A DNA stretch of 32,000 bases from Telmatocola sphagniphila (GTDB taxonomy: Bacteria; Planctomycetota; Planctomycetia; Gemmatales; Gemmataceae), in NCBI RefSeq assembly GCF_018398935.1, contig NZ_CP074694.1:5460001-5492000 (forward strand), written 5' to 3'. The translations under genes and the position numbers were made by a program. How positions within the stretch are numbered: the stretch's first letter is position 1; the number at the start of each line of letters is the position of its first letter. Positions 5,793 to 32,000 of this stretch are shown piece by piece. The notes beneath the pieces are model-generated. The model saw only the letters and a program-made list of their open reading frames with translations. It ran no database searches and was not told the DNA's origin.

Positions 5793-8700
5793 TTATCGGA
5801 ACGTCTCGGCGAGCTTCTTGGCCTCGGGAGTACCGATGTAATCGAACACCTGTACGGCCCGGAGTTGCTTCAAATACTCTGGGGATGGGGTGCCGATGCT
5901 TTCCAAAATCGTTTTAAGACGGCCACGTCCTTCGACCCCGACGATCTGCTCGGCCTTAGACAACTCTTTAGGTATTCTGTCGGCAATCTTCACTAGCTCG
6001 GCGGTCGCTTTTTCCCGTGCCGCGAACCTGTTGGAATCGAGATCTTTGATCCAGTTTTCCACCTGTTTCGGATCGGGTGCGGGAAGTGGCTTCAAATTCT
6101 TCCGGATAACTTCCAGAGCCAAATTGGGATTAGAAGCCAAAGCGCGAATGGCCTGGAAGGCTTTCTTAGCATCTTCATCACCTAAGTCTTTGAACGATTG
6201 TTCCGGGTCGCACTTCAAAGGCTGGGTGGGAATGACTTCCCAGATATAGCAGGGGGCGTCTTCGCTGGCAGCGACCAGGAGTTTTCCGTCAGGCGAGAAA
6301 TTTCCGGAGACAGAGGTCTTATGACCTTCGAATGCGAACATTTCTTTTCCAGTAGCGACTTCCCAGAGTCGTAAATGACCGTCAGCATCACCGGTTGCGA
6401 GCAATTTTCCGTTTGGTGAAAATCCAATCCAGATTCCAGGATTACCAAAAAGCTGGCTATGACTGGGAAGAGTTTGAAATCTTTCTCCTTTGGCTAGGCT
6501 CCAGATAGTCACTGAGCAGGGATTCGAGTTGCCTTCACTTGAAGCGGGATTAGTTGATGCACTATTACAGGCTAGGTACGACCCACCCGGGGAGATTGCA
6601 AGTTGGCGATAGATCAGCGTAGGGTCGGTAATAGCTAGAATTTTTTTTGTGTTCTCGACATCCCAGACACTTATCTCATAGTGTTTCTGATTTTCTTGAT
6701 ACCGATTTGTAATCAATTTCCTTCCATCGTTCGAAAGAAGAAATTTTTCAAATCCATTCAGTTGGTCTGGTGTAAAATGGGCAATTTGTTTTCCCGATTT
6801 AACATCCCAAATGAAAATCGCCTTGTCTAGCCCACCGGTAGCCAATCTCGATCCATCCGCCGAGAATGATTTTTGAAATGGATAATCCTTGTGGCCCACT
6901 AACTCGTGAAGCACTTTGCCAGTGCTGGCCTCGGCAATTAGAAGCGTATTTGGCGACTGAGATGAACTCTTATCCATTTGTTTGTTGAAGACTTTTAATT
7001 TGCAATCTGCTGAGTACGTAATGGACGCTCCGAATTCGTAGTTCGGCTCTTTGGTTCTGCTAATTGTTTTTCCTGTTCGCCAGTCGATACTTGTTAGAAA
7101 GTGCGATCTGGTGAGTATGAGTGACTTTCCATCAGACGAAAAAAGACTTTCAAAGAAGTCCCGCTGTTCGGGTGAATTAGGTAAATAGTTTCTAGTACTT
7201 AAATCCCAGAGACTAATAGTACTACTGCCAAAAATTATACCTGTCAAACTGCTCCCGTTTGGAGAGAAAACGAGGTCTTGCTGATAGTGGAAAGAGTGTA
7301 ATCTACCGATTTTATTTAGACTGACCGCATCAACTATTTCAATGAAATTACCTTGTCCGTTCCCCACAACAATCAACTTTCCATCGGGAGAAACGTCTAT
7401 ACAACTCGCATAAGTATCGACTTTGGCCGAGCGGAGCATTTTTTTAGAATGAATGTCGATGATCTCGACATTTCGAACGAAATTTTCGTTTCGACCTGTG
7501 AGTAAAACGAGGTTTTGGCCATCATCGAGAAAACGGACCCGATATAGAGAGTCTACCGGCGCCGGAATAGTTCCGATATTTCTTAGGGTAGCTACTTCGA
7601 ATATCTGAATGGATTTGTCTGGCTTACCAGCGAATACAAATCGATCACCTTTGGTTGTGAATGCGAGTTCGATTTCACGGGAGTCCGTAATAGTGGCAAC
7701 TCTATGAATGACTTTACCGTCGGTTAAAGATCGCAGTTCGATCGATTCATTCTGCCAGATATAAATAGCATTCTTGCCATTCGGAGTGATTTTAACAGCG
7801 ACTAAACGGTGCGATAATTTGGGATCGAGTCGCAAATCAAAATTAGCGATTTCTTTCTGCTCTTCGATGTTCCAAATTCTAATTGCCTTTTGGTCTGCTA
7901 TGAAAAGCTTCTTGTTATCCTGCGAAAAACCGAGCGAAATCTCTTTTGAGGATAGTACTCCCTGGGATCGGGGTTCAGACGGTTGTTGGATACGAAGCAA
8001 TTCCTTCCCTTTTTCACTATCCCAAATGCGAACCGTAGAATCCTTAGGATCTAGCGAGGCCGAAGCCAGCATCTTGCTATCGGGAGAATAGGCCAGCGCT
8101 ACAACCTCTCCCGCATGCCGAAATCTCTGCGTTCCTAGGCGCACGAGAGCCCCCGGCGGCAACGGCGCGCCTTCGGGATCGATGTAATTCTTTTCCGGCG
8201 GCATCTCCAACGGCTTCTGCACGGCCTTCTCAGAGGGCTTTTCCTTCTCCGGTTGTTGCGAGTTTAGGGTGTTGTAAACTGTTCCCGAGACCAATAAGAC
8301 GCTGGCCGCGATGAAGGCCAGGCTCTTCTTGAAAGCGAGCGCTCCCACACCTCCCGCGAGTGGCAAAACCGTCGAGGATAATGCGGGTGCAAGAATCGCC
8401 GAAGCATTGATAGTGTTGGGAATAGTGGAAGCCAGTAGCGAAGGCAGAGCAACCACTTTAAGTCGCGTACGCAAGCGTTCCCGGGCCCGGGACAATCTTG
8501 AATCCAAAGTGCCCACCGGAATTTTGAGCTCGCAGGCCGCCGCTTCCCGAGAACGCCCCTCGAGTTCGCATAACACCAGAGGATCGCGGTAGCGAGAAGG
8601 CAAACGGGTAATTTCGGCATCCAGGATTTGAAGGATTTCCCGAGAGATCGCGGCCTGCAAGGGATCGCAGTGAATTACTTCCGATCTCGCCGCCTTCTGT

Positions 8701-9047
8701 TCATGACTCGACCGGCGTTTTTGACCGCGCCGTACATTGAAAGCCACCCGGTAGGCAATGCGATGGAGCCAACCCGCCAGATTAGAACCGCGATGCAAAA
8801 TATTGGCTTTTCTAGACAGGATCACAAACACGGCCTGGCAAGCATCTTCGGCTTCCGCCGGGTTCGGGAGCAACCGGTTGCAGACGCCGTACACCATCGG
8901 CGCATGTCGCCAGAAAAGCAGGTCGAAAGCCAGGGAGTCGCGATTTTGCACGTAACGCTCGAGCAGTTGCGCATCGGTTACCGCCGCCGCTTTCATTTCA
9001 AGATCGGCACGCAGCGAATGAATCAGCGACTTAAGAATCGGCGTCAT
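5793..9047 (-). CDS. ECF-type sigma-70 family factor fused to a transmembrane segment and a large WD40-repeat domain
   Basis: The start was chosen at ATG 9047 (GGAG 8 nt upstream) rather than the track start at 9104. Sigma region 2: FDLLFWRHAPMVYGVCNRLL...DACQAVFVIL. Region 4 HTH: LPSRYRDPLVLCELEGRSREAAACELKIPVGTLDSRLSRARERLR. Hydrophobic span: LAFIAASVLLVSGTVYNTL. Many WD40-like blades follow, e.g. GEVVALAYSPDSKMLASASLD..VRIWD, GHKDYPFQKSFSADGSRLATGGLDKAIFIWD, GFSPNGKLLATGDADGHLRLWE and GHKTSVSGNFSPDGKLLVAASEDAPCYIWE. The protein ends with a helical tail. Confidence 0.85.
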   Translation of the reverse strand: MTPILKSLIHSLRADLEMKAAAVTDAQLLERYVQNRDSLAFDLLFWRHAPMVYGVCNRLLPNPAEAEDACQAVFVILSRKANILHRGSNLAGWLHRIAYRVAFNVRRGQKRRSSHEQKAARSEVIHCDPLQAAISREILQILDAEITRLPSRYRDPLVLCELEGRSREAAACELKIPVGTLDSRLSRARERLRTRLKVVALPSLLASTIPNTINASAILAPALSSTVLPLAGGVGALAFKKSLAFIAASVLLVSGTVYNTLNSQQPEKEKPSEKAVQKPLEMPPEKNYIDPEGAPLPPGALVRLGTQRFRHAGEVVALAYSPDSKMLASASLDPKDSTVRIWDSEKGKELLRIQQPSEPRSQGVLSSKEISLGFSQDNKKLFIADQKAIRIWNIEEQKEIANFDLRLDPKLSHRLVAVKITPNGKNAIYIWQNESIELRSLTDGKVIHRVATITDSREIELAFTTKGDRFVFAGKPDKSIQIFEVATLRNIGTIPAPVDSLYRVRFLDDGQNLVLLTGRNENFVRNVEIIDIHSKKMLRSAKVDTYASCIDVSPDGKLIVVGNGQGNFIEIVDAVSLNKIGRLHSFHYQQDLVFSPNGSSLTGIIFGSSTISLWDLSTRNYLPNSPEQRDFFESLFSSDGKSLILTRSHFLTSIDWRTGKTISRTKEPNYEFGASITYSADCKLKVFNKQMDKSSSQSPNTLLIAEASTGKVLHELVGHKDYPFQKSFSADGSRLATGGLDKAIFIWDVKSGKQIAHFTPDQLNGFEKFLLSNDGRKLITNRYQENQKHYEISVWDVENTKKILAITDPTLIYRQLAISPGGSYLACNSASTNPASSEGNSNPCSVTIWSLAKGERFQTLPSHSQLFGNPGIWIGFSPNGKLLATGDADGHLRLWEVATGKEMFAFEGHKTSVSGNFSPDGKLLVAASEDAPCYIWEVIPTQPLKCDPEQSFKDLGDEDAKKAFQAIRALASNPNLALEVIRKNLKPLPAPDPKQVENWIKDLDSNRFAAREKATAELVKIADRIPKELSKAEQIVGVEGRGRLKTILESIGTPSPEYLKQLRAVQVFDYIGTPEAKKLAETFR

Positions 9048-9244
9048 GCAGGCGGTCTCCTGGGGGCTATCCAACAAGATAACACCGCTCGAACCGCAAA
9101 CCATTCCGTATTTTTGTATTTTCAGGCGATGTTTTTTCGTCTTGGAATTGGATCGTTAGCTGATCTGCAGAAGGCGTCTGACTCTCAACTTCGCCATCGA
9201 GACAAACTCATTTAACGTCGAAGGCGAAATTGACTACTCGCCGG

Positions 9245-23270: not shown

Positions 23271-23788
23271 TGTAAGCTTTTAAATCTTTTGTATTGACGA
23301 GAGTACCCACGACGGGAACCGTCCTGGGAGATTGAACCATTCCAGCCTGTTTTGCCCCGGCTGGTCGGTGAGTGGATGCTAGGGGATGCCTGCCAATGCC
23401 GTCTCGCCCCAGACTTGGATAGTCCCGGAGATGCAAACGAGTCGGCTACCATTCTCCTGTGGTCGGTAATGGAATCAGCAAAGTAGAGATCGAGAGAACC
23501 CTATTCTGCGTTTAGCTAATATACGGCGCGTACGGGAACTATTGCAAGAGGGTTGGACGAAGAATTTTACTCCGATCTCACAATAAACCCGGAAAGAGCT
23601 GATAATTCGTCTCGGTTTACCCTGACCTTTGCTCGCCGAATCCGATCTCAATTGGAACGATTTCCCACCGAAGCGGCGTTGCGGCTGACTTTTCCCATCA
23701 GACTCCCCGGATTCCTAATGATTTTCTCATGATCTCTATGGAGAATAGCGAACAATCCCAGCACTATCCGAATCGTGGTAGTTTCATC

Positions 23789-25696
23789 ATGAAAAAGATC
23801 CTTTTCACCGCACTCTCGACCTTAATTGGTCTGGGAGGAATTTCCCCGGCGTTCGCGCAGGAATTGTTGCCCGCCCCCCGCATCTCAGGCATTATCGTGC
23901 CGCCCTACCATCTCGTGCTGCCGGAGAATCTCAAAGACTACAAAACGGTGGAGACCGCCGCGAAATCGAAAAGTGTCGCGCTTTCCACGAATAAAACCGG
24001 CCAGACCGGCTATCTCGGCATCCACCTGGAAACGCAGGGAGACAAACTCTTAATCGATGCCGTGCAACCGAATAGCCCGGCCGCCGCCGCCAAGATTCAG
24101 GTCGGTGATCAGTTGATTTCCTTCGAGAAAGAGCCTTTGAAATCGGTGAGCGAATTTCGCGACCGCTTGCAGACGCTGGAGCCGGGACATCGGGTTCAGC
24201 TCCAAGTTTCCCGGGAAGGGAAGACAATCGATATTCAATCCGAACTGACTGCCACCAGCCGACCTATGAAGCCCGATGCTCCCCAGCCGGTGATGGGCGT
24301 GCGCGTCCAGGACAGCGACGATTCCTCGGGCGTTAAAGTCGAAAATGTCAACGAAGGTTCCACGGCCAACAAGGCCGGGCTGAAAGTCGGCGATATCATT
24401 ACCAAATTCGATGGCTCCGCCGTCACGTATCCCCAGAAGTTCACCGATCTCTTGGGGGAAAAGAAGCCGACCGACACCGTAACTCTCGAAGTGAAGCGGG
24501 CCGACAAGGTTCTGGCTCTGAAAGTTCCGCTCGAATCCTCCACCAATCAGCGAGGAGGCGGGGGTCGTGGGAATCGTGGCGGCTGGGACGATCGCATTGC
24601 CCGGACCTGGCAAAATCCGGTTTTCCGGCTGGCCATCGTCGGCGTGGAGTATCCCGATCTCAAGCACAACGAGAAAATCCGTCTCGAGGACTGGAAGCAA
24701 TCCTTCTTCAGCATCGGCACTTACAACACCACCAACGCCACGGGGCAGAAGACGCACGGCAGCGTTTGTGACTACTATCTGGAGCAATCCTTCGGCAAAC
24801 TGAAGGTGCAGGGCAAGGTGTTCGACTGGGTGCAGCTTCCCAAAAAACGCCTGGAATATGGCGGCAGCACGACGGTCAACTCCAAGACCGATTATCTGAA
24901 AGAAGTGACCGATAAATTAATTGCCCGCGAAGGGAAAGACGCGCTGAAGGACTTCGACGGCATCTTCTTCATCTATGCCGGGGATCGCGCGACTACCAAT
25001 CGCGGTTCGCTCTACTGGCCGCACCGGGCCAACTTCACGTATGAAGGGAAGCGCTGGCCCTATTTCATCATTAACGAGATGGCCTCGCCGCAGCGGATGA
25101 CCGACATCAGTGTGATGTGCCACGAATTCGGCCATATGTTGGGCCTCCCCGATCTTTATGCCCGGCCGGAAAATCCGGGCAGTGAAGGGGTAGGAGTTTG
25201 GTGTGCGATGTCCAACCAGTTGGGGAGCGGTCGGCCGCAGCATTTCTCGGCCTGGTGCAAGGAGCAGTTGAACTGGATCCAGCCGGTCACCCTCGACCCG
25301 ACCGTGAAGCAGAAGCTGGTTCTAGCACCTATAGAAGAAGACACGCATCAGTGCTTCAAAGTGCTTGTGCGACCAGATGGCAGCGAGTATTACCTGTTGG
25401 AGAATCGCCGTCGGAAGGGATTCGATAGCAATTTACCGGCCGAAGGTTTATTGGTCTGGCGAATTCTGAATAATCGACCGATTCTGGAAGAGTCGCATGG
25501 AATTGAGGGGCCGCGCGGTCCGACTTCGTTTTTGGGGATGGTGCCGTTCCCGAGTAACTCGAACAACAGTTTCACGCCGTATACGATGCCGAGTAGTCGA
25601 TCGCAGTTGGGCGGCGGCCTGCCGGTTTACATTACGAATATCCAGCGTCAGCCGGGCGGGTTGATCTCTTTCTGGATCGGGTACGAGTTTGAGTGA
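23789..25696 (+). CDS. Secreted PDZ-domain-containing M6-family (immune inhibitor A-like) metalloprotease
   Basis: The start was moved to ATG 23789, which gives the signal peptide MKKILFTALSTLIGLGGISPAFAQE. There are two PDZ-like modules: GYLGIHLE..LIDAVQPNSPAAAAKIQVGDQLISF and MGVRVQD..VENVNEGSTANKAGLKVGDIITKFDG. The zinc motif HEFGHMLGLPDLY is typical of the M6 domain. Confidence 0.85.
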   Translation: MKKILFTALSTLIGLGGISPAFAQELLPAPRISGIIVPPYHLVLPENLKDYKTVETAAKSKSVALSTNKTGQTGYLGIHLETQGDKLLIDAVQPNSPAAAAKIQVGDQLISFEKEPLKSVSEFRDRLQTLEPGHRVQLQVSREGKTIDIQSELTATSRPMKPDAPQPVMGVRVQDSDDSSGVKVENVNEGSTANKAGLKVGDIITKFDGSAVTYPQKFTDLLGEKKPTDTVTLEVKRADKVLALKVPLESSTNQRGGGGRGNRGGWDDRIARTWQNPVFRLAIVGVEYPDLKHNEKIRLEDWKQSFFSIGTYNTTNATGQKTHGSVCDYYLEQSFGKLKVQGKVFDWVQLPKKRLEYGGSTTVNSKTDYLKEVTDKLIAREGKDALKDFDGIFFIYAGDRATTNRGSLYWPHRANFTYEGKRWPYFIINEMASPQRMTDISVMCHEFGHMLGLPDLYARPENPGSEGVGVWCAMSNQLGSGRPQHFSAWCKEQLNWIQPVTLDPTVKQKLVLAPIEEDTHQCFKVLVRPDGSEYYLLENRRRKGFDSNLPAEGLLVWRILNNRPILEESHGIEGPRGPTSFLGMVPFPSNSNNSFTPYTMPSSRSQLGGGLPVYITNIQRQPGGLISFWIGYEFE

Positions 25697-25697
25697 G
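25610..25697. repeat. Left copy of an 88-bp direct repeat (last 28 codons plus stop of the M6 protease gene)
   Basis: It aligns base for base with 29521-29608 at an offset of 3911 and is 84/88 identical. The last 64 bp are identical. Confidence 0.95.
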
Positions 25698-25717
25698 ACA
25701 AGCTAAATTAGCTTGTC
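25697..25717. other. 21-bp perfect palindrome at the left junction of the inserted segment (hairpin, or a possible terminator or recombination site)
   Basis: gacaagctaa-a-ttagcttgtc starts directly after the TGA stop of the protease gene and ends without a T tract. Confidence 0.4.
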
Positions 25718-26110
25718 CATTTCACATTAAGTATTGTTGAGCTCCTGTTTTGAACGAGAGCTTGATGAGATGTTTTGTTAGTTGAGATTGAAGGTCAAGA
25801 TAATTTGGTTTAGAGCATAGCAATTTTGGGCGAAATTTACGTACTTAGAATTCATCTCATAGGTAGATGTTTAAGAATCAATTTAGCGTGCGAGTGATTT
25901 GGTTTACAATAAAATAAATTTGAAAAAAAGACATTTTTTTTTGCTTGACATAATTCAAATTAAGTTTAGCTTAACATAAAGCCTTTAACATGATTTAATT
26001 TTAAGATTAGAGAGAAGCTTTGCCGGAACCACAAAAAGCACAGAACTAATTTTATATTATTAATTACTGAGTTACAACAAATATCTAAAACTTAAGATCT
26101 TTTGCTTTAT

Positions 26111-26779
26111 ATGAATTTACTATCATTTACAATATTCCTCTTTTCAAGCAATATGCTTTTGATTACAGAGGATCCGATTGCTGAATTTGAAAACAATTTT
26201 CCAGTTATAAAAAAAGGGTTTTTAAGCTCATTCTCAAAATATTCGGAGCAAGAAGGAAGTGTTCCTACTGAAATAAGTCAATCTAATTGGATTGATTCGG
26301 AGAAATTTAAACGGATTACTGAATATAAAAATGTGGTGTCAAAGAAGGGCGAAACGAAAACTGTAGTAGATAAAACTGAAATAGTTATGTCTGAAAATGG
26401 TCGCATTTCTGTATCGATGGATTCAGCTGGGAAAGTTAGGGGTGTTGTGGCTAATGTGAAACAGCTTTCCCCAAAAGACTACATATCCAGAAAATATGAT
26501 TCCACTTGTTTTTCGATCAATGGAATAATAAATTACAACGATTATCAAACGCTTTCCGAGATATTATCTCTTTCAAAAAAAATCGAAACTGTCGGAGATA
26601 ATTTGAATGGAATCAAAGTCATCAAAGTTACGTCTGTAAGCGATTGGGGTAAACATACTCTATGGCTCGACCCAGCAAGAAGCTATTTACCGTTAAGAGT
26701 GTTACAAGAAAAGAAATTAACTGACAAGGTCGATGATGGGAAAAAATTTGAAAGATTGGGCCAAAAAAGACAAAGATAA
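26111..26779 (+). CDS. Hypothetical low-GC protein, N-terminal part of a possible LolA-like (lipoprotein-sorting fold) protein
   Basis: ATG 26111 gives a hydrophobic N-terminus, MNLLSFTIFLFSSNMLLI. IKVIKVTSVSDWGKHTLWLDPARSYLPLRVLQEK resembles LolA/RseB-like domains. The ORF ends shortly after two A6 runs and overlaps the next ORF in another frame. Confidence 0.45.
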   Translation: MNLLSFTIFLFSSNMLLITEDPIAEFENNFPVIKKGFLSSFSKYSEQEGSVPTEISQSNWIDSEKFKRITEYKNVVSKKGETKTVVDKTEIVMSENGRISVSMDSAGKVRGVVANVKQLSPKDYISRKYDSTCFSINGIINYNDYQTLSEILSLSKKIETVGDNLNGIKVIKVTSVSDWGKHTLWLDPARSYLPLRVLQEKKLTDKVDDGKKFERLGQKRQR

Positions 26780-27224
26780 TGAAGTTATACTCCCTAAGCA
26801 TCTTATACAACAGATCGATTCAATAAAACTCGATAAAGTGAATGGAAGGGATTATATATCTGAATATAAAATAGAAATAAGCATGGAATATTCAGATAGT
26901 TCAAAAAACAAAATTGATGAATTAGTTAAATTATACAACATAAAAATTGTCGATGAATGGCAACAAGATCCATTCGTGGTAACATCTCGCATCCCTAATG
27001 GAATGAAAATAGGTGTTCCAGACGATCGACCTTTTAACTATATTTGGAAAGATGGACGACCAACCAAAGTTATAGACGAAGCTGCAACAAATACATTAGA
27101 TAAAGTTGAATTTAAGACGGACAACAACAATTCTAGATTAAGAATAATCTTATTTGCATCATGCGTAGTTATTTTAATTCTGATACTGACGTTGTCTAAA
27201 ATTATACTTCGAAAACGGTATTGA
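26733..27224 (+). CDS. Hypothetical low-GC protein with a C-terminal TM anchor; probably the continuation of the preceding ORF
   Basis: The reading frame is open from 26721. PFVVTSRIPNGMKIGVPDD resembles the C-terminal strand region of LolA-like folds. The C-terminal hydrophobic helix is LRIILFASCVVILILILTL. Confidence 0.4.
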   Translation: MMGKNLKDWAKKDKDNEVILPKHLIQQIDSIKLDKVNGRDYISEYKIEISMEYSDSSKNKIDELVKLYNIKIVDEWQQDPFVVTSRIPNGMKIGVPDDRPFNYIWKDGRPTKVIDEAATNTLDKVEFKTDNNNSRLRIILFASCVVILILILTLSKIILRKRY

Positions 27225-27406
27225 TATGAATAATATAGTATAATAACAATTCTGATTTCTTCATGAAACAAATATAATGAAAAACTCAACGACCAACCAC
27301 AAGGTCCATATTGTGGTCTATATTGTTTCTTTTTTACATCTACATGTTTTATATTATCTCTAATTAGATGTTGTTTTAGAATAGATAGATGTAAGGACTT
27401 TCAATC

Positions 27407-27856
27407 GTGAAGAGATCAAAAGGATTTTCACTAATTGAACTAATTATAGTTATTTCAATTATTGCATTACTTTTCGGTATTCTGCTTGCGGCGATACAAA
27501 GAATTCGTGCTTCTGCGGCACTCTCTAGCTGTTTGAACAAGGCTAGACAGCTCAATATAGCGTTGCATGGTTATCACGATCAATACGGCCATTTTCCTTC
27601 AGGGATTATTAGTGCGGACTACCCAACAACTCAGCCATTCATGACTTGGCTTACAAAGCTCCTACCTTTTGTCGAAGAAGAACCGCTGTGGCAAAAATGT
27701 CTGCAAGCCTATGAAGTCGATAAGAATTTTGAAAAACCACCACATCTCGAAATTTTAGGTAAAAAGATCAAGTCGTATATTTGTTCCGCTGACCCTATTT
27801 CGCAAGAGCCGTGGAATTTTCAAGGCCAGTTTACTGTTGCATTTACAAATTATCTA
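27407..27856 (+). pseudogene. DUF1559 / prepilin-type N-terminal methylation domain protein, 5' fragment (interrupted by IS630)
   Basis: MKRSKGFSLIELIIVISIIALLFGILLAAIQRIRASAA has the type IV pilin-like GFSLIE leader and is typical of planctomycete DUF1559 proteins. The frame runs into the IS at the CTAG at 27854-27857. Confidence 0.85.
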
Positions 27857-29023
27857 GTGTAGTGTCTCAGAAATAGCGTTACTTTTAGCTCCTTTTTGCG
27901 GTTTACTCTATAGAAAAGGAGAAAACCCATGAAAGTCGCGCTGCCAATCTTACTTTCTGACGAGGAACGACAAACTTTGACTTCTTGGTCTCGGGGACGA
28001 AGTACTCCCGCTCGGCTGGTCCTGCGGGCGAAGATCATACTCGCGGCGGCCGCGGGTGTACGGAACAAGGACATTGCTCAGCAGTGCGGCACGTCGAAGC
28101 CCACGGTGGCGCGCTGGCGGACCCGATTTGCGAAGCTGCGTTTGGCGGGTATCGAACGGGACGCTTCGCGGCCGGGTCGAACGCCAGCGATCAGCCGGAA
28201 AGTCGTCGAAGAAATTCTCCGCAAGACCACTCAGGAGAAACCTTCTGGTGCCACGCATTGGAGCACGCGAACGATGGCCCAAGAGGTGGGAGTGAGCAAA
28301 GCCACCGTGCAGCGGGTTTGGTCGGCCCACAACTTGAAGCCGCACTTGCATAAGACCTTCAAGGTATCGAATGATCCTCAATTCGCCGAGAAACTGTGGG
28401 ACGTAGTGGGCTTGTACTTGAACCCTCCCGAGCACGCCCTGGTGCTGAGTTGCGATGAGAAGAGTCAGATTCAAGCCCTTGATCGTACGCAAAAAGCTTG
28501 CCGATGGTACCCGGCCGTTGCGGCACTCTGACTCACGATTACATGCGTCATGGCACCACCACTCTGTTCGCGGCCCTGAACGTGGCCGAGGGAATTGTGA
28601 TTGGCGAGTGCATGCCGCGACATCGACATCAGGAATGGATCAAGTTTCTCAAACGGATCGATGCCGCCACCGATCCGTCCTTGGATTTGCACTTGATCGT
28701 GGACAACTACGCCACGCATAAGCATTCCAAAGTTCGTCGTTGGTTGGCCCGGCATTCTCGATTCCACATGCATTTCACCCCCACGAGCAGTTCCTGGATG
28801 AATCTGGTGGAGCGTTGGTTTCGCGACTTGACGGACAAACGACTGCGTCGAGGCACATTTCGAAGCGTGCCGCAATTAATCCAGGCGATTGAGGACTACA
28901 TCGATCATCACAACAACACAGGAAAGGGATTCCAGTGGACCGCCAAAGCCGAAGTTATTCTGGAGAAAGTCCGCCGGGCGAGGGCTACCTTGGATAAAAC
29001 ACATTCTGTGTGAGACACTACAC
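27857..29023 (+). mobile_element. IS630-family insertion sequence, 1167 bp, apparently intact
   Basis: Terminal inverted repeats: gtgtagtgtctca at 27857-27869, and its reverse complement at 29011-29023. TA is present on both sides (27855-27856 and 29024-29025), each within CTAG. The element carries an internal DDE transposase gene. Its GC content is host-like, unlike the surrounding AT-rich DNA. Confidence 0.9.
27929..29013 (+). CDS. IS630-family transposase (HTH + DDE_3-like), requiring a -1 frameshift near 28490-28496
   Basis: ORF A (27929-28531) carries the HTH region, and its ...[14 protein letters not shown] is typical of IS630 transposases. ORF B (frame -1, open through 29013) continues with [29 protein letters not shown]...[11 protein letters not shown]...[20 protein letters not shown]. 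The junction is at c-aaaaa-g (28490-28496). Confidence 0.85.
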
Positions 29024-29025
29024 TA

Positions 29026-29457
29026 GGCTCGTCCGGTACAAATCTAGACACCTATGATGGAATATTATTTCCAGATTCTAAGGTTGCAATAAGTGCTATT
29101 TTGGACGGTACAAGTAATACTATAATTTTCGGGGAAAGACATGTAAGTGAGAGTCGAAATTATGGTTGGTGGTACGCCGGTTGGGGACAAACTCAAAGCG
29201 GATCCCTTGATTCGTTGATGGGTAGTCGTGAACTCAATTACGATCGGAGATTGGATAATTGCCCAATAGGTCCTTATAACTTTACGGTAGGTAAATCAAA
29301 AAATCCTTGCGATGTATTTCACTACTGGTCCCACCATAGCGGAGGAGCTGCTTTCGCTTTTGCGGATGGCTCTGTTAAATTCCTCAGATATGAGCAGGAT
29401 ATTATTCTCAAAGCACTCGCGACCCGTGCCGGAAGAGAAGATGTTTCAATCGACTAA
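29026..29457 (+). pseudogene. DUF1559 protein, 3' fragment with the H-X9-DG motif (continuation of 27407-27856)
   Basis: This fragment is in frame with the 5' fragment once the IS and one TA are removed. GSSGTNLDTYDGILFPDSKVAISAILDGTSNTIIFGERH... is present, and HSGGAAFAFADGS matches H-X9-DG. Confidence 0.85.
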
Positions 29458-29520
29458 AATAAATCCGTTTTTGCATTGATAGATAGTAAAAAGGATATTC
29501 CCTGGTATCTTTAGCTATGA

Positions 29521-29608
29521 GGCGGCGGCCTACCGGTATATATCACGAATATCCAGCGTCAGCCGGGCGGGTTGATCTCTTTCTGGATCGGGTACGAGTT
29601 TGAGTGAG
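29521..29608. repeat. Right copy of the 88-bp direct repeat (orphan copy of the M6 protease 3' end)
   Basis: See 25610-25697. The four differences all fall at codon third positions and are synonymous. Confidence 0.95.
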
Positions 29609-29968
29609 GGGGAAACGTCATCCCAGAGCAGAGTTTGTTTCTCAAGTACTACCGGCTGTGCCCGGTCAACAGCTTTGCCCTGAAAAATGTGCGAATTCTT
29701 CAGATGGCCTCACTGCCACGCAAAATTCACGTCAATTTGTCAGTGGGATGAACTGCTAAGCTCCTCTGGTAAGAGGATCACCCGACGGATTCCGCCTCAG
29801 CTTCGGCCAGAGTTGCAGTCGATGAAAAGATAAGACGGCAGTTCGGAGTAACATAACCAATTCAAACAGAATATTTAAGAATTCAGAATTCCAGAATTTT
29901 CAGCCCGAATAAGCCGAATAAATGTCGTATCGATTTCGGTTCGATACGAGAAATCATTGCAGTGAAAA

Positions 29969-31438
29969 ATGCTTAAAGTTCTGATAGGGATCTCGGCAGT
30001 GATCGCCGCTACGGGGTTATACTTTCATTTTTTTCGCGACAACGGGTCGAAGAGTTCTAATAGTTTCAACGCGACTCCCCGGCAACTCTCCTGGATTCGA
30101 ATCCTAGTTTGCCTGGCCGCTCTTCTGCTGACACTACTGGAAGACCTACCAAGAGTTGCAGAATTCCCTCGTGAATTCGGCGTGTCTTATGAGGCGACGG
30201 AGTGGCTACTTCGCCTACCTGGCTATTCTCAGGTATTGGTCAGCCGGAGTTACCTTGCTTTACTCCAGTGGGCTACGTTCTTATTACTTTTCCTGGCCAT
30301 GCTGGGTGTTTTTACTCGGTTCAGTCTTCCGCTGGCGGGACTCAGCTTCTTTTACCTGCAAGCGATTTTGCGTTATCATGCAATATCTTTTCACGAGGGC
30401 GTCTTACCGATTTATCTGCTACTGATTCTGACTTTCACTCCCTGTTCCGAGGTTTGGTCGTTCGATTCCTGGTGGAGATCGCCCCGGCCTGCACCATCTT
30501 CGCAAGCCGTTCGATTTAGTGTATTCCTGTGCTTTTTCGTTGTTGCCGCTGTCTATGTTTCTTGCGGATTCAGTAAGTTAGGCAATTCGGGTTTGAATTG
30601 GTTGCAACCCGAAAACTTGGAATTCAAAATTCTCCGCGATGCTATGAATCCCCTCTTCTTCAGTGAATTTCGCAATCCGGCTATCTGGCTCCACAGACAT
30701 GATGTACCCATTTTCAGTTACAGTCTAATAGGGATATTTACTGTATCAGCGGAATTGTCCTATATAGCAATCTTTTTTTCGAAGTGGGCACGGGTTGTGA
30801 TTCCTATTTTGATTTTCAGCTTGCACACTGGAATCCTAGTTTTTCAGAGGATTTTATTTCTAGACTTGATGATTCTCCAACTCATCTTCATTAACGCGAA
30901 CTGGTTAGCACTATGGGCTCGTCGAAATAAGGAAATTCCTCCAGATTCCGATAACTTCATTCGCATTTCGAAGCTGGAACATAGATCAGAAACGGCTTGT
31001 CCGAAGCAACGCCTAAGACTGCTGGCATTCATTGTGATTTCTGCGGGTATCTCCGCGGTTTGGATTTACAGGATCGAACGCTTCCCGTTGTCGGCGTGGC
31101 AGATGTACTCCGATGTTCAAGCTCGGATGCCGATCGTGTATTTTAAAGTGATGGCCACTCGAGAAAACGGTGAGATTGAGGAGGTCGATTCACATTTATT
31201 CTGTCGATCGGTTATGATCAACAGCTATATGATGCTTATCCCCTCTCTCAACTCGGAGCGTATGAGTACGCTAACTGAAGTCATTACGAATTACATTGAA
31301 AAAAGTAATAAGGCCTCGCCCCCAGAATCGCGAATTAAATGTATAGAAATCGAGAAATGGAACTGGGATTACTGGGAAGATCCGAAGAACCCAAATTGTG
31401 GAAAAATAGTCAATAGCTATGCGTTCTATGCAAAGTAA
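29969..31438 (+). CDS. Polytopic membrane protein, HTTM-domain-like (vitamin-K-carboxylase-related TM domain family)
   Basis: There are multiple TM helices. LSWIRILVCLAALLLTL..., ...MLGVFTRFSLPLAGLSFFYLQAILRYHAISFHEGVLPIYLLLILTFTPCSEVWSFDSWW resembles the HTTM pattern (..G..tR.a......y.s......nggd.l...Lf.l.f.P....S.D). A soluble C-terminal part of roughly 130 aa follows. GC content is lower than in the core genes. Confidence 0.7.
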   Translation: MLKVLIGISAVIAATGLYFHFFRDNGSKSSNSFNATPRQLSWIRILVCLAALLLTLLEDLPRVAEFPREFGVSYEATEWLLRLPGYSQVLVSRSYLALLQWATFLLLFLAMLGVFTRFSLPLAGLSFFYLQAILRYHAISFHEGVLPIYLLLILTFTPCSEVWSFDSWWRSPRPAPSSQAVRFSVFLCFFVVAAVYVSCGFSKLGNSGLNWLQPENLEFKILRDAMNPLFFSEFRNPAIWLHRHDVPIFSYSLIGIFTVSAELSYIAIFFSKWARVVIPILIFSLHTGILVFQRILFLDLMILQLIFINANWLALWARRNKEIPPDSDNFIRISKLEHRSETACPKQRLRLLAFIVISAGISAVWIYRIERFPLSAWQMYSDVQARMPIVYFKVMATRENGEIEEVDSHLFCRSVMINSYMMLIPSLNSERMSTLTEVITNYIEKSNKASPPESRIKCIEIEKWNWDYWEDPKNPNCGKIVNSYAFYAK

Positions 31439-31453
31439 ATCTCACTCGCACTA

Positions 31454-31749
31454 GTGCAATGTCTCAGAATTAGCGTTACTTTGAGCTCCTTTTTTTCAGT
31501 TCATTCTATAGATGAAGAGAAAACCCATGAAAATCGCCCTGCCAATTTCGCTGTCCGACTAAGAACGCCAAACGTTGACTTTTTGGGCTCGGGGACGAAG
31601 TACTCCCGCTCGGCTAGTCCTTCGGGCGAAGATCGTAAGCATCCCAAGGTTCGGCGTTGGTTGACCCGACATCCTCGATTCCACATACACTTCACCCCCA
31701 CGCGCAGTCCCTGGATGAATCTGGTGGAACGCCGGTTTCGCGACTTGAC
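31454..31749 (+). mobile_element. Degenerate, internally deleted and 3'-truncated IS630 remnant
   Basis: 31454-31634 aligns with the left end of the intact copy (27857 to about 28036), including the TIR (gtgcaatgtctcag vs gtgtagtgtctcag). It has an in-frame TAA where the intact copy has GAG. 31635-31749 aligns with about 28719-28833 of the intact copy. About 680 bp are missing internally, and the right end is absent. Confidence 0.8.
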
Positions 31750-31948: not shown

Positions 31949-32000
31949 ATGCCCCTTCGCCTTCTGCTGAGCTGTCTGCTGTTGGTGCTTTGGAATTTCC
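31949..32000 (+). CDS. Possible 5' end of a secreted protein gene running off the right edge
   Basis: The ATG at 31949 is followed by MPLRLLLSCLLLVLWNF, which is signal-peptide-like. Only 17 codons are visible. Confidence 0.3.
   Translation, partial: MPLRLLLSCLLLVLWNF

Follow-up and report, generated by a model that had tools for sequence, protein, structure and literature searches.

The 32,000-nt stretch of DNA analysed here (the window) comes from the peat-bog planctomycete Telmatocola sphagniphila, a member of the Gemmataceae (contig NZ_CP074694.1, positions 5,460,001 to 5,492,000 of the forward strand). Locus tags KIH39_21915-21945 belong to the site described here. In its right part, a segment of 3823 bp (25698-29520), which we call the islet, directly follows an M6-family metalloprotease gene (the M6 gene) and lies between two 88-bp direct repeats of the 3' end of that gene. 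The attachment-site terms attL, attR and att are used for these repeats by analogy with integrative elements. The M6 gene, the repeats and the islet contain the following features:

23729-25696, forward strand: M6-family metalloprotease gene with two PDZ domains, the target of the insertion (Pfam and NCBIfam matches)
25610-25697, forward strand: left 88-bp repeat (attL-like), covering the final 28 codons of the functional M6 gene, its TGA and the next base
25634-25697 (= 29545-29608), forward strand: 64-bp block identical in both repeats, including the TGA
25697-25717, no strand: palindrome GACAAGCTAA-A-TTAGCTTGTC with 10-nt arms, directly past the M6 stop and forming the first bases of the insert
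25718-26101, no strand: AT-rich non-coding leader (~400 bp), GC ~0.27-0.28
26102-27224, forward strand: frameshifted gene for a protein of ~375 aa, open reading frames (ORFs) 26102-26779 and 26733-27224 (tblastn, phmmer; KIH39_21920)
27407-27856, forward strand: 5' part of a DUF1559 gene, prepilin-like with an N-methylation motif (Pfam N_methyl; SBP_bac_10 positions 1-114)
27857-29023, forward strand: IS630-family insertion sequence (IS), 1167 bp, with perfect terminal inverted repeats GTGTAGTGTCTCA and HTH and DDE_3 domains
29026-29457, forward strand: 3' part of the DUF1559 gene (Pfam SBP_bac_10 positions 163-266)
29521-29608, forward strand: right 88-bp repeat (attR-like), a piece of an M6 3' end that is not translated

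The M6 ORF (23729-25696) has 655 codons and encodes a Peptidase_M6 domain besides two PDZ domains. NCBI probably places the start at 23789, which gives a protein of 635 aa (QVL31477.1). The TGA codon is located at 25694-25696. The gene is intact and its reading frame is preserved up to the islet: in a C-terminal alignment the protein is colinear with 40 homologues, without indels and with an identical stop position. The two repeats, 25610-25697 and 29521-29608, are identical at 84 of 88 positions (95%). All four mismatches (25621, 25627, 25630 and 25633) are at codon position 3 and synonymous (CTG/CTA, GTT/GTA, TAC/TAT and ATT/ATC), and all of them fall inside the first 24 of the 88 nt (P ~0.003-0.006). 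Chance similarity of the repeats was rejected. An earlier note on this DNA had reported the repeats, the 64-bp identity, the synonymous mismatches and a 21-bp palindrome at the left junction; all were confirmed at the same positions, and the palindrome occurs only once in the window. The third-position, synonymous nature of the four mismatches also upholds its view that the distal copy is a fragment of a homologous coding sequence. No third copy of the repeat was detected in the window with up to 15 mismatches allowed. Within the window, the 64-bp core has only two copies and does not belong to a dispersed repeat family. Past the core, the left copy is marked by ACAAGCTAAATT and the right copy by GGGGAAACG.

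The islet is foreign by composition. Its left part without the IS630 copy (25698-27856) has a GC content of 0.33 and a tetranucleotide correlation (r) to the host of -0.10, and its right part (29026-29520) has values of 0.41 and -0.03, with positions 1-25600 of the window as the host reference. Most 1-kb intervals of the host show a GC content of ~0.57 and r of 0.66-0.88. The GC content at third codon positions (GC3) is 0.26-0.36 in the islet genes versus ~0.70 in host genes. The contrast seen in the earlier note thus survives windowed GC and tetranucleotide analysis. The IS630 copy has a GC content of 0.55 and r of 0.68. Beyond the second repeat, the right-hand flank also departs from the host (GC 0.46, r 0.39), so that the GC boundary on this side is soft.

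The corresponding site without the islet was found in a relative. When the C-terminal 150 aa of the M6 protein were used as the query, a 205-aa fragment (P0285, 99% identical) led to contig L035 (JGI metagenome 3300042090, 1682 bp); with the full-length M6 query the same fragment had ranked below 120 full-length matches. L035 1-1236 corresponds to window 24462-25697 at 98.9% identity without gaps, and L035 1237-1682 corresponds to window 29609-30052 at 97% identity, directly joined to the M6 stop. In a three-way alignment L035 has the left context of attL, the right context of attR and one 88-bp unit, and it lacks the 3823-bp segment. Contigs L031-33 match 30728-31749 at 95.9%, including a deleted IS630 remnant (L031 is from the same metagenome as L035). 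The matches of L035 and L031-33 indicate that the right flank is ancestral to both lineages, which differ by the 3823-bp segment. The earlier note had proposed a search for just such a site, with the protease gene followed by the sequence from 29609 onward, and had interpreted the repeats as the attL/attR footprint of an element that supplies a replacement 3' end. L035 provides the former with a single 88-bp copy and bears out the latter by its single-crossover topology. We conclude with high confidence that 25698-29520 is a strain-specific foreign insertion in T. sphagniphila with this topology. A chimeric M6/HTTM query of metagenome contigs yielded only a 66% relative. At L035 ~486 (window 24947), a lysine codon of the M6 gene is changed to a stop (AAG to TAG), and the JGI annotation has two genes at this place; the TAG may mean that the protease has become a pseudogene in the L035 population, or it may be a read error.

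The same alignment could be read in reverse, with the segment and both repeats ancestral to the species and the segment lost in the relative by recombination between the repeats. A crossover in the 64-bp block gives exactly the sequence of the relative, deletion between direct repeats is common, and the islet is decaying (frameshift and IS630). The composition of the segment is, however, strongly foreign, and the segment is found in no other dataset; the 90% cluster of the islet gene contains only T. sphagniphila sequences. An earlier insertion of a like type would still be needed, so that this polarity would change the timing of the event and not its nature. We consider it quite improbable.

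An assembly artefact would require either that the assembly of the window placed a free circle in the chromosome by way of the 64-bp repeat or that the contig of the relative skipped the AT-rich islet for lack of coverage. Short-read graphs cannot resolve a 64-bp repeat, Logan contigs break there, and L035 is a 1.7-kb contig of low coverage. Opposed to this, the source assembly is a single contig of 6,592,641 bp, a 3.9-kb circle without a replication gene yet with a host IS630 is implausible, and protein searches found no fragments of islet genes in metagenomes. Two Logan contigs of run SRR14506984 match the window exactly: L036 (25668-27883) and L030 (29579-31555). Both start 30 nt within the core, where a k-1 break is expected if a repeat has two copies, and both exits from the core are therefore present in the raw data; the connectivity across the core is not readable from these unitig contigs, which break at the repeat. 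We assign a very small probability to an artefact.

The history of the two copies can be followed at the four variable codons:

Left copy: CTG GTT TAC ATT, no other differences
Right copy: CTA GTA TAT ATC, no other differences
Relative L035: CTA GTT TAC ATT, plus two private changes in the 64-bp block (ACA and GAA)

The first 24 bp of the left copy resemble L035, with GTT TAC ATT in common. The right copy carries three changes (GTA TAT ATC) that are absent from both the host gene and the relative and that lie at consecutive third positions within 7 nt. Three unique synonymous changes in 8 codons compare with 0.19 expected (Poisson P(>=3) = 0.001), where the expectation is taken from the synonymous divergence between host and relative (10 differences in 411 codons). 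The right copy has CTA and GTA, which the host seldom uses (3% and 7%). Random drift of an untranslated copy would not hit synonymous positions alone. The first 24 bp of the right copy therefore arrived with the insert, from a more distant and still functional M6 allele.

These codons also bear on two other explanations of the repeats, namely an 88-bp target-site duplication left by a transposon-type insertion and a local tandem duplication. Direct repeats do flank the insert, and a weak inverted 7-mer (AGCTAAA/TTTAGCT) is present at both ends. A target duplication would start identical, and three later changes in an untranslated copy, all synonymous and within 7 nt, are very unlikely. To our knowledge, no transposase yields duplications of 88 bp. 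The three-way alignment effectively refutes both explanations; a tandem duplication would repeat the sequence past the left copy, and no such repetition is seen. We give these explanations next to no probability. Terminal inverted repeats were rejected as evidence of transposition, their only support being the 7-mer. TTTAGCT occurs 7 times in the window versus 2.6 expected, with four copies in or at the islet, and the copies at the islet ends are inverted (25701-25707, reverse strand; 29510-29516, forward strand). It is a weak hint that these copies could be protein-binding sites flanking the att segment.

The palindrome at the left junction folds as RNA into a 9-bp hairpin (-15.6 kcal/mol, z = -4.2). 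It has no U-tract, and a terminator scan gave no call. It is probably either a putative replacement terminator-like hairpin or a putative protein-binding site. The homology on the incoming DNA begins at a codon boundary and stops one base past the stop codon, and the hairpin comes next.

The M6 gene of a low-GC donor was rejected as the source of the right copy: 64 bp are identical to the host and the codon choice is GC-rich. The peptide encoded by the repeat is lineage-specific, which indicates that this mimic of the M6 3' end was captured from a Telmatocola-like host rather than a low-GC organism. Either the crossover itself or a subsequent homogenisation must fall in or beside the 64-bp block. 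L035 differs from both window copies at two sites in this block. Since the block is identical in the two copies and carries these two differences from the relative, the incoming att segment would have been a mosaic, in part diverged and in part identical to the host. Such a mosaic (24 diverged and 64 host-identical bp) is the scar expected from a previous round of integration and excision in which the crossover points differed, or else from gene conversion.

The cargo is a pair of genes of Gemmataceae type, one for a ~375-aa envelope protein and one for a DUF1559 pilin-like protein. Both are inactivated, the ~375-aa gene by a frameshift and the DUF1559 gene by the IS630 copy; we take this to mean that the islet is decaying and not functional. 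The leader upstream of them contains no ORF longer than 33 aa. The frameshift in the ~375-aa gene is near A-runs at 26753-26801. In a tblastn search a 371-aa protein from contig L025 aligned in two pieces (E 4e-44): its residues 3-215 match 26120-26752 in one frame, and its residues 231-354 match 26802-27173 in the next. An exhaustive phmmer search found ~35 homologues of 330-390 aa with 25-36% identity, with matches of 364-390 aa among them. The N-terminus of the islet protein resembles a signal peptide, and its C-terminus carries a transmembrane anchor. A homopolymer in the gene (26575-26582) is A8 in the window and A7 in Logan contig L029 (run SRR14506983); this difference and the A-run frameshift may reflect either sequencing error or tracts of variable length.

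Without the IS630 copy, the two DUF1559 parts rejoin into an intact ORF of 293 aa (294 codons including the stop), followed by a 63-bp spacer before the right repeat. The IS630 copy is flanked by a TA target duplication (27855-56 and 29024-25) and is a later, host-derived insertion and a separate event. As its removal restores the DUF1559 ORF, the insert was ~2.65 kb beforehand and consisted of the leader, a two-gene planctomycete cassette and the spacer. DUF1559 pilin-like genes are hugely expanded in planctomycetes. Homologues of the ~375-aa protein are encoded directly upstream of the closest homologues of the islet DUF1559 protein (51-53% identity) in Gemmataceae chromosomes. A common order there is [85-120 aa][~375 aa]([C39 peptidase/rhodanese])[MauE][DUF1559] (L025 1111-5029; L026 3918-6888; L027 941-3911), in which the ~375-aa proteins have a signal peptide, a C-terminal transmembrane anchor and no Pfam match. 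It is possible that the ~375-aa protein and the DUF1559 pilin-like protein are functional partners. The earlier note was correct on the low-GC DUF1559 gene and the IS630 copy of host-like GC, but the ORFs it called orphans are the two halves of the frameshifted gene, which has homologues.

No integration or transfer genes were found in the islet, and tRNAs and Rfam families were likewise absent from it. Searches of the islet ORFs against PHROGs gave nothing below E 0.06, and NCBIfam gave nothing. With neither phage genes nor viral similarity, the islet does not qualify as a prophage or a phage satellite. The short identical duplication, inverted repeats and transposase of an IS or transposon are not what bounds and carries it. 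The islet has the flanking repeats, the empty site in a relative and the target gene kept functional that mark an integrative element of the island or prophage type; an integrase next to the att site is missing, and a self-sufficient element is not supported. In structure, the islet corresponds to a cis-mobilizable element (CIME): attL and attR are kept, and integration and transfer genes are absent.

Our preferred explanation, held with moderate confidence, is that the islet was inserted by a single crossover through a site-specific recombinase, whose gene was lost or acted in trans. The incoming DNA would have carried the 88-bp M6 3' end, i.e., the last 28 codons and the stop, and then the hairpin. 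This molecule was presumably circular, and one reciprocal crossover with the chromosomal gene would have inserted it whole (Campbell-type integration). The outcome would be an intact gene at the left (attL) and an untranslated 3'-end fragment at the right (attR). The crossover enzyme would be a site-specific recombinase, probably of the tyrosine type, whose gene either lay on a portion of the element that was lost afterwards or belonged to a related element acting in trans. A resident IS630 later enlarged the ~2.65-kb insert. The layout, with its start at a codon boundary, its end one base past the stop and the hairpin, preserves the target gene, is typical for elements that have adapted to the 3' end of a gene, and for this reason favours a site-specific recombinase. 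The islet as it stands is non-autonomous and decaying, and would be comparable to a CIME.

A number of observations count against this explanation. In agreement with the earlier note, which saw no integrase or recombinase gene, domain searches detected none among the ORFs of the islet and of the window as a whole, the IS630 DDE transposase excepted. An excisionase, a circular form or a related autonomous element was not seen either. A tandem array or a nearby integrase may lie past base 32000, the recombinase scan having covered the window. The islet DNA had no match among plasmids and phages, and viral contigs contained neither the palindrome nor the right-copy variant nor the islet protein. 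In its cargo, the islet carries a cassette that is ordinary for Gemmataceae chromosomes and not mobile-element machinery. The empty site comes from one short, low-coverage metagenome contig (L035). A set of 18 more distant M6 loci (44-56% identity) showed no duplicated 3' end and no downstream synteny; the site is thus not a recurrent hotspot across the family. Finally, 64-88 bp of homology is enough for RecA, and a site-specific enzyme is accordingly not strictly required.

RecA-dependent recombination at the M6 3' end could have brought in the islet from circular DNA, or from a conspecific chromosome that was already filled, with no integrase in the lineage. The minimal length for RecA pairing is below 64 bp, and the perfect identity of the core exceeds it. 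The absence of a recombinase gene and the chromosomal type of the cargo fit this route, and the mosaic att segment would be the product of variable crossover points in the homology tract. What it leaves unexplained is the end of the M6 fragment, one base past the stop and then a hairpin, a layout that looks selected for preservation of the gene. It would also do no more than place the duplication event in a previous host. We regard the RecA route as unlikely, although it is a real contender to insertion by a site-specific recombinase.

It is also conceivable, but distinctly doubtful, that the islet is a still-mobile cassette with att sites only, which moves in Telmatocola populations through a recombinase encoded elsewhere or by using RecA and a landing pad. 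In the RecA variant, the 64-88-bp mimic of a host gene would be the landing pad, and the att mosaic would be the scar of a prior excision and re-integration. A degenerate pattern of the core peptide had no match in viral or metagenome contigs.

Two features to the right of the islet are shared with the relative:

29609-31450, forward strand: original downstream flank, contiguous with the M6 stop in the relative
31451-31749, forward strand: older IS630 remnant, internally deleted, outside the islet and common to the relative

The flank has a GC content of 0.46, a GC3 of 0.50 and r of 0.39, and it encodes a 489-aa HTTM-domain membrane protein at 29969-31438; an older variable region may adjoin the 3' end of M6. 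The UniRef name of the 489-aa protein is HTTM domain-containing, and NCBI calls only 281 aa of it. The deletion in the IS630 remnant is equivalent to 28040-28718 of the islet copy. The relative (L031 724-1216, ~96%) keeps the 3' end of the IS, and the window copy is truncated at 31749.

Among the matches listed for the M6 protein from 5.8 billion proteins, the nearest homologue is 64% identical overall and differs in its C-terminus, and a scan of the genome collection with the M6 protein found relatives of at most 56% identity. In two metagenome-assembled genomes of Gemmataceae, a homologue of the sigma-factor N-terminus of window gene 5793-9104 is located just upstream of M6 (L001 8799-9260; L003 3394-3858). 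In the window, the M6 gene and ORF 5793-9104 are separated by 15 kb. Positions 6001-8000, inside this ORF (reverse strand), form a patch of low GC (0.42-0.46) with r to the host of 0.27-0.43. The mid-gene patch suggests that the gene, which encodes a 1103-aa protein with extracytoplasmic function (ECF) sigma and WD40-repeat parts, is mosaic or recombined.

The closest functional parallels to the islet are e14 and phage 21 in icd, the CIMEs, and islands at the 3' ends of tRNA genes. In islands and prophages at tRNA and tmRNA genes, attP carries the 3' end of the gene, integration regenerates the gene, and a distal direct-repeat fragment is left behind. The logic of the islet is alike, but its target is a protein gene, its repeat is 88 bp long, and its copies differ at synonymous positions where the RNA sequence is invariant. 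Integrative elements exploiting XerCD (IMEX, e.g., CTXphi) have no recombinase of their own and insert at the chromosomal dif site. They are recombinase-free like the islet, whose site, at the coding 3' end of the M6 gene, has no apparent relation to dif. Campbell integration of non-replicating plasmids by RecA shares the single crossover and the homology repeats flanking the insert; it is a laboratory or accidental event and leaves the stop-trimmed homology and the hairpin of the islet unexplained.

In Escherichia coli, e14 replaces the last codons of icd with its own, and an untranslated pseudo-3' end of 163 bp stays behind as attR, according to the account of that element in PMC6379469 (citing Hill et al., 1989). 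In what that account describes, e14 and phage 21 resemble the islet in the choice of a protein-gene 3' end, the replacement codons and the pseudo-3' fragment. They differ in being prophage-sized with their own tyrosine integrase, whereas the islet is 3.8 kb, recombinase-free, planctomycete and inserted in an M6 gene. CIMEs still have both attL and attR but no genes for integration or transfer, and their movement depends on the recombinase of a related element after accretion (PMC6323972). The streptococcal CIMEs (CIMEL3catR3 with ICESt3) are like the islet in having kept the att ends and lost the integration and transfer genes. Their cognate integrative and conjugative element (ICE) is known and their mobilisation was shown experimentally, whereas the islet is known from sequence alone. 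The earlier note had called an integrase-less island at the 3' end of a protease gene unusual. This was overstated, as CIMEs (PMC6323972) and e14 in icd (in the account given in PMC6379469) are established.

The islet reveals no new mechanism, and insertions of its kind have precedents in other bacteria. Descriptions of mobile DNA in Planctomycetota are scarce, and the islet is a cleanly bounded case with both a filled and an empty site. The four single-nucleotide differences beside the core offer a ready read-level assay for excision. The DUF1559 pilin-like genes travel with a conserved ~375-aa partner gene. The islet shows that foreign DNA enters Telmatocola by the classical targeting of a gene 3' end with replacement, here with a protein-coding target and a recombinase-free islet.

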